Of a DNA stretch of 64,000 nucleotides, positions 31,233-39,512 are shown piece after piece (position 1 is the first letter of the stretch; every line of letters begins with the position of its first letter). The stretch covers positions 480,001-544,000 of the forward strand of contig CAXXFL010000007.1 in the NCBI GenBank assembly GCA_963674965.2, given 5' to 3'. This stretch comes from a bacterium (GTDB taxonomy: Bacteria; RBG-13-61-14; DATKZS01). Position numbers and translations under genes: made by a program. The notes beneath the pieces were generated by a model that made no database searches, had not been told where the DNA came from, and saw nothing but the letters and a program-made list of their open reading frames with translations.

Positions 31233-31458
31233 AATTTAAGTACACTGTCCCCAGAACCCACCAGACTTTATATATTCCAAGAATAACCGCAAGAGAGCGG
31301 CAACCCCCATTCTTGGTACCACGCGACCTACTCGCTATGCTCGCCCACAAGCGGAGCTATGGGTTACGCCGGAGGGCACGCCCCTGAGGGCAATGTGAGT
31401 TACCTGTTGATTTTCAAAATTTAAATACACTGTCCCCAGAACTCCGTGTCCCCGGAAC
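31233..31458 (-). repeat. GGGGACA junction motifs, copies 2-4
   Basis: AATTTAAGTACACTGTCCCCAGAAC (31233), AAAATTTAAATACACTGTCCCCAGAACT (31417), partial GTGTCCCCGGAAC (31446). Confidence 0.75.
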
Positions 31459-31599
31459 CCGGGGTCGCCCACGCATATTGCGTGGGTGAGCGAAGCGAAC
31501 GGGCTGCTGTCTTCGGGGCCGAGGGCGCTTGGAGGCGTTTTACGGCGCGGGGTGGCCCATCTATGAGCAAGCTTGTCAAGTCGGGTACGGGATTTATCA

Positions 31600-31720
31600 C
31601 GGGTTAACTCAACCATCTATTCGGCGTCGCCCATTGACGCGCCATACTTTTTTTTCGAAACCCGGCCTCAGTCATGCGGACGGCGTCGCAATGCGCCAGG
31701 GCCACCCACGAGGTCCGGTA
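31600..31720 (-). ncRNA. Candidate bridge/seek RNA guide loops of the IS1111 element
   Basis: Two parallel TGGCGC..CGACGCCG..ATG units carrying matches to the target (GGGTGGCCC, GCATG) and to the element end (ATAGATG). Confidence 0.65.
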
Positions 31721-31747
31721 CTTTTTCCCGCGTCCCGAAACTAACTA

Positions 31748-33510
31748 GTTCCAGTTGCGTAACTAGAAAAAGCCAATAAAAACAATGTGCTGTAAGCATT
31801 TTTCGCTTCCCTTTTTGGTCTTGATATGATACAATAACTCCTTGAAAAATCAAGGATTGACTTGCCGGGATGCTGTGAAGGGGGCGAAAAATGCGACCGA
31901 AAATTAAAATGCAAATGACCATTGAAGACCACGAATTTTTGAAAGCGGGCCATCTTTTCAAACAAGACACTGAGCTTGAGAAGATGAGCATAGCGCTCGA
32001 CGAGGCCAAGGAAATTCTGGAAGCTGTTGCCGATGATCTCCAAAGCGGACTCAAGGAGACCGGCGCCGAGGGGATGAGCGTCGAGCAGGTCCTTAGGAGC
32101 GCGGTCATCTATCAACTCAAGTGTTATTCCTACCGGGAACTCGGCGACCGCCTCGGTTCCGATTACAATTTCCGCAAGTTCACCAGGTTCTTCGGGCGGG
32201 ACATTCCCCATTTCAGCAGCCTGGAGCGGGCGATAAAACGCATCCGCCCCGAGACCTGGGAGCGGATCAACGAAATGCTCGTGGCCCTGGCCATTAAAAA
32301 AAAAGTAGAAGACGGCGAGGCGGTCCGCGCTGACACCGCGGTGGCCGAGGCCAACATCCACTATCCGACCGACGCTTCGCTTCTTTTTGACAGCATCCGT
32401 GTATTGGACCGGTTGATGAAAGGAGCGCGGAAGGAGCTGCCGGGTCTCGGGTTCGAATATCATGACCGGACTCGGCGGGCCAAGAAGCGCGCTTACCAGA
32501 TCGCCATGGGCAAAGGCAAAGGGATCGAGAAGAAACGGGCGGTCTGGTACCGGGACCTTCTCAAGGTTTCGGCGGAAATCTTGGCCATGGCCCGCTCGGC
32601 GCGGGAGGCGCTGGACGAGGCCCTTAAAGGCGGAGAGCTTTATTTCAGCGATGCGGGCCTGGCAACCATGATCAAGAGCGAACTCGATCATTACCTGCCG
32701 CTTTCTGAGCAGTGCGTCGAGCAGTGCGAGCGGCGGGTTATAAAAGGCGAGAAGGTTCCCGCGCAAGAGAAGGTGGTTTCCGTTTTCGAGCCGCACGTTG
32801 ATATCATCGGAGAGGCAAGACCATGAGCCCGACCGAGTTCGGTCACAAGGTGATGGCGGCGACGGGAAGGTCGGGGATTGTGCTTCAATATAAAGTGTGC
32901 GAGGGCAACCCTTCCGACGCCGACCTTTTCGAGGACATTTTGCAAAAACACGTCCGCCTGTTCGGCAAGGCTCCACGCGAGTTTACCGGCGACCGCCGCT
33001 TCTATCATGAGGACAATGAGAAGCTTGCGACCGAAGGTCCTTATTATATCGAGCGCCTGGCCATTCCCAAGCCCGGCAAAAGGAGTTCGGAGCGGATCGA
33101 GCACGAGCGTCAGCGCTGGTTCAAGAAGCTTCTTCGCTTCCGGGCCGGGATCGAGGGCGGCCTTTCCGCCCTTCTTCGCGGCTTCGGTCTGAGCCGATGC
33201 CTGTGGAGAGGTTTCGAGAGCTTCAAGTCCTGGGTGGGTCTTTCGTTCTTTGCCTGGAACCTTCGAAAACTCGCGCTGCTGACTTAGCCGCCGCCGGGCG
33301 CGCCCCTGTGGGGGCAATGAAAAACGGAAATGAAAAACAGCAAAAGGAGAGGTGTTTTTTGAAAGGATAGAAAAGGGCCGGCTCAGGCATTCAACTCGCC
33401 TGAAAGCGTTAAAATCTTTTCCGTCCTTTATAGACGCCCTGAAAATCTGCATGTCCATATCCTCTCCGCACCGCATAATGAAAGCCATTAAGCAGTTGTG
33501 CAACAGAAAC
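31748..33510 (+). mobile_element. ISNCY/IS5-like insertion sequence
   Basis: IRs GTTCCAGTTGCGTAACT / AGTTGTGCAACAGAAAC; 6-bp TSD TAACTA at 31742-31747 and 33511-33516. Confidence 0.88.
31891..33287 (+). pseudogene. DDE transposase split by a frameshift near 32810
   Basis: RADTAVAEANIHYPTD, EFGHKV, GDRRF and RAGIEG motifs; HVDII(R)RGKTMSPTEFG is restored by adding one base. Confidence 0.85.
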
Positions 33511-33673
33511 TAACTAAGCGTCCACCCCGCCTTCCCCCAATATTCCGTCGCGATGAAATCCCTCTCCTCCTCTCCGGAGCGCTGGTCAAGGGCGGCGCAG
33601 CCGTCCCGCAAAGCGGGATCGCGGACCCTTGACGAGTGTGACGGGAGGAGTACATTTTCTTTCCGCGACGGTA

Positions 33674-34693
33674 TTACGCCGCCTCGCTCCAGCACTCGCC
33701 CGTTCTGAGCATAGCCAGACCGACTCGGGCCAGGTAATGGGCAATGGCGATCACCGCGATCTTTTTACGGTCCGGATCGCCTTTTACTATCCGTTCGAAG
33801 CGCGCCCTGACTTTTTCCGAGCGGCGGATGGCGGCCCAGGCGGCTTCGGTTAAAAGTTTCCTCACGGTTGGAGGGCCTTCTTTGGTGATGTGCCCAAGTC
33901 GGTCGCGTCCGGCGCTGGAATCTAGAACGGGAACCAGCCCCAGGTAAGCGCCGATCTTGGAGGTCTTGTCGAATCTGCCCGGATCGTCGATGTATGCCGC
34001 CAGGGCTTCGGCGGTGCGGATGCCGACGCCGGGGATCGTCATCAGCAACCTCACGCCGGGATGGCGGGAAGCCTCCTTGGCCAGTATTCTTTCCGCGGCC
34101 CTGATGCCGGCTTCGAAAAAATCGAACTCCCCGATCAGAGTCGTGAGTTTATACGCGCTCAAAGGGTCTTCGAAACGAATCGACTTCAGCCAGGCAATGC
34201 CCTTCCTGGTCCACAGTTTGTATGGAGAAGGCAAACCGTTTTCGCGCAGCAGAGAACGGATTTCGTTTTTGGTCCTGGTACGCTTGGCGACAAGGCGTCC
34301 GCGATGCTCGATAATGTTGCGCCATGCCCGGATATGCGGCGAGGGAACGTGGACGGTCGGGACCTGGTCCAGGAACAGGAGTTTTGCCAGCTTTTGGGCG
34401 TCGATGCGGTCGTTCTTGCGCTTGGACTTGAATATCAAACGGACCTTGCCCGGGTTGGCCACCACCACCCGGCGCGCAACTTTTTGGAGGCGGTCGTGAA
34501 GGTGTCCAGCGCCGCAAGAAGCCTCGAAACATATTGACATGTAATCGAGATATTTGTCTCCAATGCGTTTGATCTCCTCCACCGCCTTCTCCCAGTTTCC
34601 TTTCACCTCGCGGGCCATAAGCTGTTTGCCGTTCTCGTCAAGCACGCAAATCGAACTCCTCTTGACATGGACGTCCATTCCAATGTACAACAT
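33674..34693 (-). CDS. IS110 family DEDD recombinase/transposase
   Basis: YIGMDVH, FEAS, KNDRIDA (DEDD), IPGVG and GLVP..DSSAG serine motif; AAGGAGG RBS. Confidence 0.95.
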   Translation of the reverse strand: MLYIGMDVHVKRSSICVLDENGKQLMAREVKGNWEKAVEEIKRIGDKYLDYMSICFEASCGAGHLHDRLQKVARRVVVANPGKVRLIFKSKRKNDRIDAQKLAKLLFLDQVPTVHVPSPHIRAWRNIIEHRGRLVAKRTRTKNEIRSLLRENGLPSPYKLWTRKGIAWLKSIRFEDPLSAYKLTTLIGEFDFFEAGIRAAERILAKEASRHPGVRLLMTIPGVGIRTAEALAAYIDDPGRFDKTSKIGAYLGLVPVLDSSAGRDRLGHITKEGPPTVRKLLTEAAWAAIRRSEKVRARFERIVKGDPDRKKIAVIAIAHYLARVGLAMLRTGECWSEAA

Positions 34694-34815
34694 CTTTAAG
34701 CCTCCTTTCGAGTATGAGTTTGTTGATACTTACACTATACCCGACTGGGGGCTTGCTACATAGAATCATGCATTTTCACAAAATGCATGGGTGGCGTAGC
34801 CACTGGCTGAGTATT

Positions 34816-34851
34816 AGATCTGGGGACTAGATCTGGGGACACCATACTTAA
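34816..34851 (+). repeat. GGGGACA junction motif with partial tandem duplication
   Basis: AGATCTGGGGACT-AGATCTGGGGACACCATACTTAA. Confidence 0.8.
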
Positions 34852-34852
34852 C

Positions 34853-35156
34853 TCACTTCTTTTCGGGCTTTGGGGCCGGCTTTTGGGGGGCGAGGCGGCG
34901 GCCGAGGGCGGTCTCGAGTCCCGCGACGAAGTCCTTTTCTCCGAGGGGGCGCCCGGCGCGCTCGCGCGTTTTTATTCGCGATACCTCGGAGCCAATTACG
35001 GGCAGATTCAAAAAGTCCTCCCATTTATATGGTACCTTGTCTAACAAGCCGGATACTTTGACTAATTCGTCGTCCTTGCCGCGCCGATGGGCCTCCCCGA
35101 TGGCCAGCCGCAGGCCGTCCTCGGTCCCGGGCGCGGCGATGAGGTGCACGTGGTTG
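34853..35156 (-). pseudogene. Duplicated 3' fragment of the RAYT gene
   Basis: 34839-35156 matches 39022-39339 with 3 mismatches seen; starts at NHVH, where it is cut by a junction motif. Confidence 0.85.
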
Positions 35157-35416: not shown

Positions 35417-36433
35417 TTAGTGTGGCAAACTGTTTGTTTCCTCCGGTTTCTCCGGTGGGTTGATCCACGCTTTGCCGGGCAACTCCGGCGCCGTCGGCGG
35501 TCTTTTCACGAAGCGCTCCGGGTTTTTTTCATAGGCGTGGTCGAGCGTTTTTTGCCGGGCGGCCACGATCTCGCTCGCCATTCCGTAATGGACCATCTCG
35601 GGCGTCATCAGGCCGATCCCGGTGTGCCGATGCTCGCGGTTGTACCAATCGAAAAACTTCACGCAAAAGGCCCTGGCGTCCTCGATGGAGCCGAACCGGC
35701 TCGGGAACTCGGGCCGGTACTTCATGGTCTTGAACTGGCTTTCCGAGTAGGGGTTGTCGTCGGACACGTGGGGCCGCGAGTGGCTCTTGGTCACGCCCAG
35801 GTCGGCCATCAAGAAGGCCACCGGCTTTGATTTCATCGAACTCCCCCGGTCGGCGTGGATTGTGAGTTGTCCCGGCTCGATCTCCTGTTTTCGGATGCTG
35901 TCCCCGATCAGGCGGCGGGCCAGCTCGGCGCTCTCGCGGCGGGCGATCATCCAGCCCACCACGCAGCGGCTGAAGATATCCATGATCACGTAGAGCTGGT
36001 AGCAGGTCCATTTGGCCGGTCCCTTGAGCTTGGTGACGTCCCAGGACCAGACCTGGTTGGGGGCCTCGGCCAGCAACTCGGGTTTTTTGTATCGGGGATG
36101 CCGAAGCTGGTTGCGCCGCTCCCTGACTTCCTTTTCCGAGTCGAGGACGCGGTACATGGTGCGGACCGAGCACAGCCATGTCCCCTCGTCCAGGAGCGTT
36201 GCCCAGACCTCGCGGGGGGCCTTGTCGGCAAAGCGCTCGGAGTGGAGTCCGTCCAGCACCCGGCGCCGCTCGTCCTCGCTCAACGACCTTGCCGGCTTGG
36301 CCGCGCGCCTCGGCGGCGGAGGCCCGAAGGGAATTTTAGCGCGGCGGTCAAACGTTGCCCGCGACAGGCCCAGGGCCTCGCAGGCGGCCTTGACGCCGAC
36401 CCGGGGAGCGGCCGTGCTTGCCGATTCCATCAT
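35417..36433 (-). CDS. IS3-type transposase OrfB (integrase core)
   Basis: WSWDVT, DIFSRCVVGW, HADRGS and DNPYSESQFKT DDE motifs. Confidence 0.93.
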   Translation of the reverse strand: MMESASTAAPRVGVKAACEALGLSRATFDRRAKIPFGPPPPRRAAKPARSLSEDERRRVLDGLHSERFADKAPREVWATLLDEGTWLCSVRTMYRVLDSEKEVRERRNQLRHPRYKKPELLAEAPNQVWSWDVTKLKGPAKWTCYQLYVIMDIFSRCVVGWMIARRESAELARRLIGDSIRKQEIEPGQLTIHADRGSSMKSKPVAFLMADLGVTKSHSRPHVSDDNPYSESQFKTMKYRPEFPSRFGSIEDARAFCVKFFDWYNREHRHTGIGLMTPEMVHYGMASEIVAARQKTLDHAYEKNPERFVKRPPTAPELPGKAWINPPEKPEETNSLPH

Positions 36434-39035: not shown

Positions 39036-39512
39036 TCACTTCTTTTCGGGCTTTGGGCCCGGCTTTTGGGGGGCGAGGCGGCGTCCGAGGGCGGTCTCGA
39101 GTCCCGCGACGAAGTCCTTTTCTCCGAGGGGGCGCCCGGCGCGCTCGCGCGTTTTTATTCGCGATACCTCGGAGCCAATTACGGGCAGATTCAAAAAGTC
39201 CTCCCATTTATATGGTACCTTGTCTAACAAGCCGGATACTTTGACTAATTCGTCGTCCTTGCCGCGCCGATGGGCCTCCCCGATGGCCAGCCGCAGGCCG
39301 TCCTCGGTCCCGGGCGCGGCGATGAGGTGGACGTGGTTGGGCATCAGGCAATAGGCCCAAACCTCGACGCCGCGCTTTCGGGCCCACTCGGACATGAGGG
39401 AGACGTACGCCTCGTAGTCTCCGTCCGTGAAAAAGGTCCGCTACCTCCCGTTTCCCCTCTGAGTGACGTGATGGGGGGCAAAGGGAACAACGGCTCTCGC
39501 CATCCTGACCAC
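39036..39512 (-). pseudogene. REP-associated tyrosine (HUH Y1) transposase, RAYT-like
   Basis: PHHVTQRGN and AYCLMPNHVHL present; in-frame TAG at 39441-39443; central catalytic-Tyr region missing between HRR and GKDD. Confidence 0.88.

Follow-up and report, generated by a model that had tools for sequence, protein, structure and literature searches.

Among the IS1111 elements described as carrying seekRNAs are ISEc11, ISKpn4 and ISPst6, together with ISPa11, whose targets are REP sequences of Pseudomonas aeruginosa; in the account given in PMC11187229, the guide that matches the top strand lies 5' of the guide that matches the bottom strand in these RNAs. For the bridge RNAs of IS1111 elements, donor nucleotides are reported in the multiloop (PMC11208160).

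The locus analyzed here lies within a window of 64,000 nt (the whole stretch of DNA that was analyzed, to which positions refer unless another contig is named). Like the elements of PMC11187229, and above all ISPa11, it has a transposase of ~340 aa, subterminal inverted repeats and a long non-coding region downstream of the gene, and it shares with them, as they are described in that paper, the guide order, a hairpin/REP target and the lack of any duplication beyond the shared core. It may differ from the same description in its terminal extensions, which are 3 and 1 nt here when counted outside the TG core and usually 7 and 3 nt, and it differs in its serine motif, which is S-A instead of S/T-G (PMC11187229), and in that this copy, unlike the named elements of PMC11187229, is interrupted by another element. 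The closest relatives that we found, from Planctomycetota MAGs and metagenomes, are only 48 to 57% identical; the named IS1111 elements were compared by description.

The locus also resembles IS621, which is described as having a DEDD plus Ser active site and a REP target (PMC11208160, PMC11208158; PDB 8wt6), and the IS621 bridge RNA, in which each of the two loops reads two strands of DNA and a core dinucleotide is common to target and donor (PMC11208160, PMC11208158). In contrast to that description of IS621 and the IS110 group, the predicted RNA is encoded in the right end instead of the left, the guide order is reversed, the putative donor guides flank a hairpin in a multiloop instead of lying in an internal loop, and the core is TG instead of CT (PMC11208160, PMC11208158). 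The likeness of the two proteins is weak (E = 1e-11) and falls mainly in the C-terminal domain. A third comparison is with ISPpu9 and ISPpu10 of Pseudomonas putida, described as IS110-family elements in REPs with separate copies of the downstream RNA gene elsewhere in the genome (PMC12288879). Unlike the element studied here, ISPpu9 belongs to the IS110 group, its downstream Ssr9 RNA is described as neither a guide nor needed for transposition, and its solo copies have end boxes of their own and form circles (PMC12288879); the solo copies found here are truncated relics without a left end.

An earlier note on this DNA had reported an IS1111-type element inside a repeated hairpin. That observation is confirmed, and its interpretation as an RNA-guided element is supported. 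We consider it very probable that this is an IS1111-group (IS110 family) insertion sequence that is guided by an RNA from its own downstream non-coding end.

RESULTS

Borders, core and target site

The borders of the element and of the site that it occupies are as follows.

31560 to 34766, minus strand: whole IS1111-type element, interrupted (ends read and compared with relatives' ends and with unoccupied sites)
34764 to 34766, minus strand: 3-nt left-end extension ATT, preceding the left subterminal repeat in RNA sense
34750 to 34763, minus strand: left subterminal inverted repeat, CTATGTAGCAAGCC in RNA sense (relatives compared)
31574 to 31579, minus strand: invariant TTGACA in the right end (identical in 24/24 aligned sequences)
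31561 to 31573, minus strand: right subterminal inverted repeat, AGCTTGCTCATAG in RNA sense (relatives compared)
31560, minus strand: the element's terminal A, following the right subterminal repeat in RNA sense
31558 to 31559, minus strand: core copy at the right-end junction, CA on the plus strand and TG in RNA sense
34767 to 34768, minus strand: core copy at the left-end junction (same evidence from relatives)
31550 to 31559, plus strand: left part of the target, GGGTGGCCCA
34767 to 34791, plus strand: right part of the target hairpin, CATGCATTTTCACAAAATGCATGGG
31462 to 31487, plus strand: neighboring hairpin of the same repeat family, GGGTCGCCCACGCA-TAT-TGCGTGGG
Target form, written around the core: GGGTGGCC-CA-TGC

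The sequence GGGTGGCCCAT ends at 31560, and CATGCATTTTCACAAAATGCATGGG begins at 34767, right after the element. Removal of the element with one CAT brings back a hairpin whose 12-bp stem is perfect and whose loop has 3 nt, as the earlier note had stated, and the related hairpin that it placed at 31462 is present. Across the junction, this restored sequence can be aligned with three sites elsewhere in the genome that are unoccupied and carry the TG core once: 58/64 letters are identical at C5:557317, 57/61 in one ungapped block at C7:694185 and 53/57 at C1:676. The genome contains 52 sites with no more than 1 mismatch to the 13-nt target, 41 of which have the inverted arm within 45 nt, and we counted 46 full units of the hairpin family, with tandem 209-bp arrays also occurring. 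When the other copies were mapped, as had been proposed, all five of the genome's right-end junctions for this type of element were found to abut [G/C]GCCACCC. The description of the target as a REP family holds insofar as it is a repeated extragenic palindrome with many copies; the RAYT link of strict REPs, a Y1 (RAYT) transposase gene flanked by the repeat, was not found, the repeat's head motif being absent within 1.5 kb of each of the genome's 5 PF01797 matches. We therefore use "REP-like" as a descriptive term only.

The ATG core proposed earlier has to be shortened, because relatives have only TG common to both junctions (CG in L034 and GG in L046); the repeated CAT/ATG is the TG core plus the element's own terminal A. 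In the two relatives with CG and GG, there are matching changes in both loops of the predicted RNA.

The two subterminal repeats have the length of those of the IS1111 group (~11 to 13 bp), and CTATGTAGCAAGCC matches the reverse complement of AGCTTGCTCATAG at 13/14 positions with a one-base bulge; relatives are alike. Counted without the TG core, the left extension has 3 nt and the right one 1 nt, figures that become 5/1 or 3/3 if the element is counted with one core copy, the count depending on where the repeat is taken to start. Insertion is site specific, with the core at both junctions and no further duplication, as in the IS110 family. The element is now 3207 bp long, or ~1438 bp once the nested element and one of the two duplication copies are subtracted. 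Its non-coding ends measure 73 nt upstream of the transposase gene versus ~345 nt downstream (the nested element and one duplication copy discounted), so the longer non-coding region is 3' of the gene, as it is in the IS1111 group. Inspection by eye of the left end, here and in relatives, found no good -10 sequence at 17 ± 1 nt that would complete a junction promoter.

Transposase

33674 to 34693, minus strand: DEDD/Ser transposase, 339 aa, reading frame intact (Pfam, NCBIfam, IS621 alignment)

The protein has an N-terminal DEDD RuvC-like domain (PF01548; E = 3.5e-19) and a C-terminal Tnp domain (PF02371; E = 6e-23), and NCBIfam model NF033542 places it in the IS110 family with 224 bits versus a cut-off of 140. 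The DEDD and Ser residues are intact, as previously claimed: D7, E57, D95, D98 and S260 align to IS621 D11, E60, D102, D105 and S241 (the 8wt6 chain numbering is offset by 2, counted from the alignment). The serine motif, GLVPVLDSSA at residue 252, has A and not G as the second residue of the pair; among 34 members of the clade, the second pair is SA in 20, SG in 7, TG in 1 and unmatched in 6. The protein thus has the length (330 to 350 aa) and, as an SA variant, the GL-P----S(t)G motif of the IS1111 group, for which an occasional TA is noted in PMC11187229. By analogy with the family, the recombinase would be active and programmable.

Predicted RNA module

31561 to 31737, minus strand: predicted bridge/seekRNA module (fold, consensus structure, guide covariation)
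31726 to 31737 with 31583 to 31593, minus strand: outer helix (own versus cross energies)
31710 to 31718 with 31663 to 31670, minus strand: target-loop helix
31699 to 31707, minus strand: right target guide, 9 nt, GGGTGGCCC, complementary to the right flank
31681 to 31698, minus strand: target-unit hairpin
31673 to 31677, minus strand: left target guide, 5 nt, GCATG, identical to the left flank
31645 to 31649, minus strand: candidate right donor guide, 5 nt, directly 5' of the donor hairpin
31622 to 31644, minus strand: donor hairpin, followed by A
31614 to 31620, minus strand: left donor guide, ATAGATG, predicted to read the element's right end

In RNA sense, the two parallel units have exactly the letters quoted in the earlier note. 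The CCGG/CCTC stem said to enclose the target guides corresponds to a loop closed by CCGGACCTC/GAGGCCGG, in which TCC precedes GCATG. Folding of the non-coding end across relatives yields a consensus structure with compensatory changes in 18 of the 29 pairs, and the outer helix is more stable with its own partner strands than with those of other loci (-20.9 versus -16.4 kcal/mol; 0/2000 permutations). The consensus pairs and the outer helix give this region the conserved secondary structure of a bridge RNA or seekRNA. Folded alone, the module is not unusually stable (z = -0.55; 56/200 shuffles are equally stable). A search of positions 31300 to 35000 on both strands against Rfam 15, with E up to 1, gave no matches; Rfam may hold no such family. 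The RNA run (X7) contributed one contig, which lies inside the nested element (33113 to 33378), and none over the RNA module.

Guide segments and their DNA partners

A close homologue is present in only 1 of 100 related genomes, so relatives of the host gave almost no comparison. The comparison set consists of 5 loci from genome contigs and 45 from metagenome contigs, about 31 of the latter being close. L022, L039, L044 and L045, whose contigs end before the RNA, were left out of the counts. In ~20 related elements from MAGs and metagenomes, the guides change together with the flanks. The right target guide matches the reverse complement of its own right flank over at least 7 nt in 17/18 distinct lineages, versus 17/306 mismatched pairings, and the left target guide matches its own left flank over at least 4 nt in 21/25, versus 51/600 mismatched pairings. 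These matches exceed chance. The observed mean was reached by 0/5000 permutations for the right target guide and 0/5000 for the left; like the other permutation counts given here, these overstate the case, since the sequences compared are related and hence not independent of one another. The flank-match count used a stricter anchor that missed L015 and L016, which match over 8 nt each with a looser one; the right target guide of L034 does not fit its own flank (4 nt). The locus thus has guide segments of 9 and 5 nt, in the order of IS1111 seekRNAs and covarying with their flanks, as expected of a bridge RNA or seekRNA.

The three letters after AUAG in the left donor guide are those after CATAG in 29/33 loci, an agreement that takes in the non-ATG variants ACG, GTG and AGG; in the other 4/33, the core differs from the donor guide (six loci without a right end are left out of this count). 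The earlier note had found no clear right donor guide. A candidate is now apparent at 31645 to 31649, which covaries with the 3-nt left-end extension: it pairs with extension position 2 in 18/20 loci and with position 3 in 17/20, with three pair types at each of the two positions (0/10000 permutations). At this locus it is only 5 nt long, with a G opposite A and one U-G pair. Donor guides for both ends, as in bridge RNAs and seekRNAs, are therefore found, the right one being short and a candidate. Two other forms of donor guide were sought: a right guide that is the full reverse complement of the left end is absent, and by eye the letters after AUAGAUG do not fit a continuation along the circle junction. 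Taken together, the sequence comparisons show that all four guide segments covary with their DNA partners.

Nested element and other copies in the genome

31748 to 33510, plus strand: nested ISNCY-family element, 1763 bp (genome copies, NF033593 on both ORFs)
31742 to 31747 and 33511 to 33516: TAACTA duplications flanking the nested element

The nested element is unrelated to the IS1111-type element, which it splits at a point between the gene for the transposase and the non-coding 3' end. The genome has 15 or more near-identical copies of it, among which only the nested one is missing a C after 32807. It leaves the RNA module uninterrupted, all of the module being to one side of the insertion. 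The solo copies of the IS1111-type element include a 147-bp relic at C1:591189, which has the same right-end junction and whose 100% identity to the full copy indicates that the lineage was active recently. In a diverged relic at C5:502832-503011, the guide GGTGGCG adjoins the flank CGCCACC.

DISCUSSION

Under the mechanism that we propose, the long non-coding end that follows the gene would give rise to an RNA that guides the 339-aa DEDD/serine recombinase. This RNA is predicted to fold as a three-way junction closed by the outer helix. In its target loop, the 9-nt guide would pair with the top strand of the target's right half (G+GGCCACCC) and, after the hairpin, the 5-nt guide ending in the TG core would pair, in the left half (GCATG), with the bottom strand. 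The second hairpin would bear the donor guides in the same layout, with AAGUA on its 5' side reading the core and the 3-nt left-end extension and AUAGAUG on its 3' side reading the right end and the core. Strand exchange at the TG core would then join a circular copy of the element to the site GCA-TG-GGCCACCC at the foot of the repeated hairpin. That the RNA is made, is bound by the protein and directs recombination is inferred from the published family.

Whether the interrupted copy can still move is, in our judgment, evenly balanced. If it cannot, its identity is as above and the copy is immobile, with the nested ISNCY element parting the RNA from the transposase transcript, and the guide matches are the mere record of a past insertion. 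The genome has one full copy and one left end versus four right-end relics, the perfect target at C5:557317 is still free, and the nested element lies 4 nt 5' of the RNA's outer helix; an inactive copy would account both for the single copy despite a free target and for the severing of the RNA from the transcript of the transposase. Neither a circle junction nor an emptied site was seen in the contigs of 4 runs, which cannot show rare forms. However, the transposase frame is intact, as are the two ends and the entire RNA module, and PMC11187229 describes an ISEc11 seekRNA that worked when supplied from a plasmid promoter. An RNA here with its own promoter or produced by read-through could therefore still serve.

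Another explanation is that the protein recognizes the shape of the hairpin, as REP-specific DDE elements do, that the RNA of the non-coding end has a regulatory or structural role, and that its likeness to the flanks is a by-product. As this would predict, many relatives likewise have a hairpin that ends in GTG and lie at its 3' foot. However, the flanks of relatives vary widely, each matching its own element's guides on both strands, and core changes occur jointly in both loops in L034, L040 and L046. Moreover, capture of flanking sequence would not give a right target guide that is the flank's reverse complement instead of a copy of it. We regard this explanation as highly improbable. Less probable still is that the borders or the nested structure are assembly artefacts in what is a nest of repeats: although run X1 contigs end 11 to 30 letters past the junctions (our rule asks for 31 letters on each side), X1 contigs 31550-31771 and 33488-34796 carry every junction unchanged (X1 may be the source sample), a run X3 contig spans 31459-31606 across the right-end junction, and the same right-end junction recurs at C1:591189.

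Within the RNA-guided reading, the observations can be joined into a broader scheme, which we put forward tentatively and think rather unlikely to hold in full. The clade would read target and donor by two identically built units on one three-way-junction RNA, its programmable donor code having shrunk to the TG core and two of the three letters of the left extension, with a fixed unpaired A, so that the "terminal extension" of IS1111 elements would be the donor address. Because the target is repeated in the guide DNA, a copy inserted in a palindromic repeat would hold a direct repeat that could delete the transposase and leave RNA-only relics such as that at C1:591189, and the complete diverged relic at C5:502832-503011 could steer the remaining transposase to a second site.

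Elements of this kind are already described in the bridge RNA and seekRNA papers of 2024, and REP targeting is known; the new element leaves the mechanism as known unchanged. It adds a well-resolved natural example of an RNA-guided IS1111 element from a poorly sampled lineage. The ~20 related elements in which guides and flanks change together could define the guide rules of this clade, including guide lengths, the TG core and where the donor guides lie, and such rules would be useful for reprogramming recombinases of this type.

RESULTS

The IS1111-type element, on the minus strand of the window (C7:480001-544000 of the source genome, G000, whose contigs carry designations such as C1 and C7), has the following features.

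Features of the IS1111-type element (window positions; ends in RNA sense)
33674-34693, minus strand: transposase, 339 aa (Pfam DEDD_Tnp_IS110 and Transposase_20)
starts at 34766, minus strand: left end, ATT-CTATGTAGCAAGCC
stops at 31560, minus strand: right end, AGCTTGCTCATAG-A
31748-33510, between transposase gene and right end: nested ISNCY-family element, 1763 bp, TAACTA duplications
31726-31737 with 31583-31593, minus strand: outer helix of the RNA module (predicted fold)
within the RNA module: target arm (predicted fold), closing helix CCGGACCUC/GAGGCCGG, loop of GGGUGGCCC, hairpin, UCC and GCAUG
after the target arm: second hairpin (predicted fold), AAGUA on its 5' side, A-AUAGAUG on its 3' side

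The transposase scores 224 bits against NCBIfam NF033542 ("IS110 family RNA-guided transposase"; cut-off, 140), and in an alignment to the solved recombinase of IS621 (8wt6), its D7, E57, D95, D98, and S260 correspond to D11, E60, D102, D105, and S241, which the IS621 structure paper names as catalytic. Together with the Pfam matches, this supports the proposal in the earlier note of an RNA-guided recombinase with apparently intact catalytic residues. Both element ends are subterminal inverted repeats, matched at 13/14 positions with a one-base bulge. Without the nested element, the IS1111-type element is ~1438 bp, with noncoding ends of 73 nt (left) and ~345 nt (right).

The nested element has at least 15 near-identical copies elsewhere in the genome. 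The window copy lacks one C after 32807, and its transposase is thereby divided between the ORFs 31891-32826 and 32823-33287; of 16 genomic copies covering the stretch, 15 have this C, as do contigs of three public sequencing runs. Other insertion sequence material lies nearby: the IS1111-type element and the hairpin segment are enclosed by inverted repeats with TGTCCCC-type ends (31421-31443 and 34829-34851), whose end sequences are found again at several loci, and 35417-36433 encodes an IS3-family transposase. Insertion sequences of at least three types are nested here. At ~39315-39452, a weak match to Y1_Tnp (PF01797) that contains an in-frame TAG probably represents part of an IS200/IS605-type or RAYT gene. 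In the noncoding region of the IS1111-type element, ~65 to 90 nt past the stop codon, a 26-nt stretch (33585-33610) is 100% identical at 9 other loci (L002 to L010). In L002, the sole locus checked, it directly follows an IS481-family transposase gene and has the same orientation. In both elements, a GTCAAGGG...CCCTTGAC stem takes its 5' half from this stretch, which may act as a terminator or processing site common to the two.

On the plus strand, the left flank of the element ends in GGGTGGCCCAT and the right flank begins with CATGCATTTTCACAAAATGCATGGG. Once the element and one CAT are removed, a 3-nt loop on a perfect 12-bp stem remains. This restored site is real: it aligns over the junction with unoccupied genomic sites.

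Unoccupied sites aligned to the restored site
C5:557317: 58/64 letters, with all 13 guide-read letters
C7:694185: 57/61 letters, in a single block
C1:676: 53/57 letters, with one extra CAT

An unoccupied site at C1:675950-676150 reads GGGTGGCCCAT-CAT-GCATTTTT, with CAT doubled as if an element had left minus one flanking triplet; this may reflect either natural variation or a footprint. The genome contains 52 sites with at most 1 mismatch from the 13-nt target, most of the form GGGTCGCCCATGC, and 41 of these have an inverted arm within 45 nt. Hairpins of the family also occur in tandem arrays of a ~209-bp unit (C5:347900-350300, with ~nine units in series; C2:361300-362500; C7:767200-767900), each unit with two different family hairpins. 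REP-like repeats do not usually form arrays this regular. None of the five Y1-transposase matches in the whole genome has the hairpin repeat within 1.5 kb, so of the REP-family target previously proposed, the repeated hairpin stands, but "REP-like" is a description and not membership.

The RNA module (31561-31737, minus strand) is not broken by the nested element, which is 4 nt upstream of it. The fold energy of the single module is nothing special (z, -0.55), and support for the predicted fold comes from comparison rather than energy. Among 100 genomes of host relatives, only 1 has a close homologue; scans of genome and metagenome contigs yielded ~35 elements with transposases 48 to 57% identical and right ends of the same build; the titled ones among them come from Planctomycetota MAGs. 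When 24 RNA modules were aligned, compensatory changes were present in 18 of the 29 pairs of the consensus structure. The outer helix could not be lined up, and we therefore compared duplex energies: the mean is -20.9 kcal/mol for an element's own 5' and 3' segments and -16.4 kcal/mol with those of other elements (0/2000 permutations as extreme).

The guides change together with the DNA that they match. For the right target guide, we took the 15 nt immediately 3' of the target-loop helix's 5' strand and compared them with the right flank in reverse complement. The two fit by at least 7 nt in 17/18 distinct lineages (the exception is locus L034), compared with 17/306 mismatched pairings (0/5000 permutations). 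The left target guide, 5' of the helix's 3' strand, equals the left-flank end over at least 4 nt in 21/25 lineages, compared with 51/600 (0/5000 permutations). In a relic that is 71% identical (C5:502832-503011), the guide is GGTGGCG rather than the window's GGGTGGCC, and the flank is CGCCACC rather than GGCCACC. For the left donor guide, the three letters 3' of AUAG equal the three 3' of the element's CATAG in 29/33 loci, including the variants ACG (L034), GTG (L040), and AGG (L046, twice). With these letters, the left target guide also changes in L034 and L046, where it ends in the matching CG or GG; this shows that the core common to both loops is a dinucleotide, usually TG. Thus, of the ATG core described earlier, the sharing between loops holds, but the A is the element's final base; the window repeat looks like ATG because the target happens to hold A there too.

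The earlier note had found no clear right donor guide. By analogy with the target loop, its expected place is directly 5' of the second hairpin, where it would complement the left end's top strand. Across 20 loci, we compared the 5 nt at this place with the core and 3-nt extension of the left end. The core positions are paired in 14/20 and 16/20, extension position 1 (always A, mostly facing G) in 2/20, position 2 in 18/20 (T-A, A-T, G-C), and position 3 in 17/20 (T-A, A-T, C-G). For positions 2 and 3, 27 of 32 cells from 16 distinct combinations are paired, with 0/10000 permutations as high; several extension types recur in otherwise distant lineages, and kinship still inflates the pairing counts. 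The window's AAGUA (31645-31649), opposite TG-ATT, is a candidate right donor guide, not a finding. The supplements of the 2024 papers may already show one in other IS1111 elements.

In this genome, the element type is represented by a single left end, a single transposase gene, and five right-end junctions (the window, C1:591189, C1:191361, C5:503011, and C7:31444), four of which were recovered by an RNA-module profile search. All five adjoin [G/C]GCCACCC, and three adjoin exactly ATGGGCCACCC. At C7:31420-31470 (L067), the ATGGGCCACCC is adjoined by a right-end-like scrap of ~25 nt (GGCTTGCTTATAG), upstream of which there is neither RNA module nor transposase. The relic at C1:591189-591335 (L065; 147 bp, 100% identical to the window) is cut precisely where the right target guide has its 5' edge. 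An inverted repeat of 17 nt flanks the relic, and 9 of these nt are the guide itself. In the simplest reading of this one case, the element would have inserted in one arm of a paired repeat, and a deletion would then have run from the guide DNA to the identical 9 nt in the opposite arm. On metagenome contig L032 (2309-2516), a right end (...CATAG-A) runs directly into a second, truncated RNA module at the point where that module's right target guide starts, which is also the breakpoint of the C1 relic; this junction may be an assembly artifact or a recurrent rearrangement at the guide.

In public-run contigs, the element junctions are present and unchanged. The sole contig to bridge a junction with 31 letters on either side is from run X3 (31459-31606, right-end junction); run X1 may be the source sample. 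No RNA, circle, or emptied site was seen in these contigs, in which rare forms are not visible. The window copy has intact parts but is split by the nested element, and it is a single copy despite a free perfect target. We consider it equally probable that this copy is active and that it is inactive.

DISCUSSION

The earlier note, which described an element in a hairpin with parallel guide units, was right in both observation and reading. IS1111 hallmarks are described as subterminal repeats, a downstream noncoding region, a GL-P----S(t)G motif in a transposase of 330 to 350 aa, and an RNA that has its match to the top strand 5' of its match to the bottom strand; REP-targeting ISPa11 is counted among these elements (PMC11187229). 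Bridge RNAs are predicted in 93% of IS1111 elements, and donor nucleotides in a multiloop are noted (PMC11208160). The window element has the IS1111 traits described in these seekRNA and bridge RNA papers, with an S-A motif and shorter terminal extensions as small departures. ISPpu9 is less close: it is an IS110-group element, and the RNA downstream of it is described as not being the guide (PMC12288879). The window element is a further member of the already known RNA-guided IS1111 elements, and it brings with it a set of relatives useful for comparison and two leads of modest weight.
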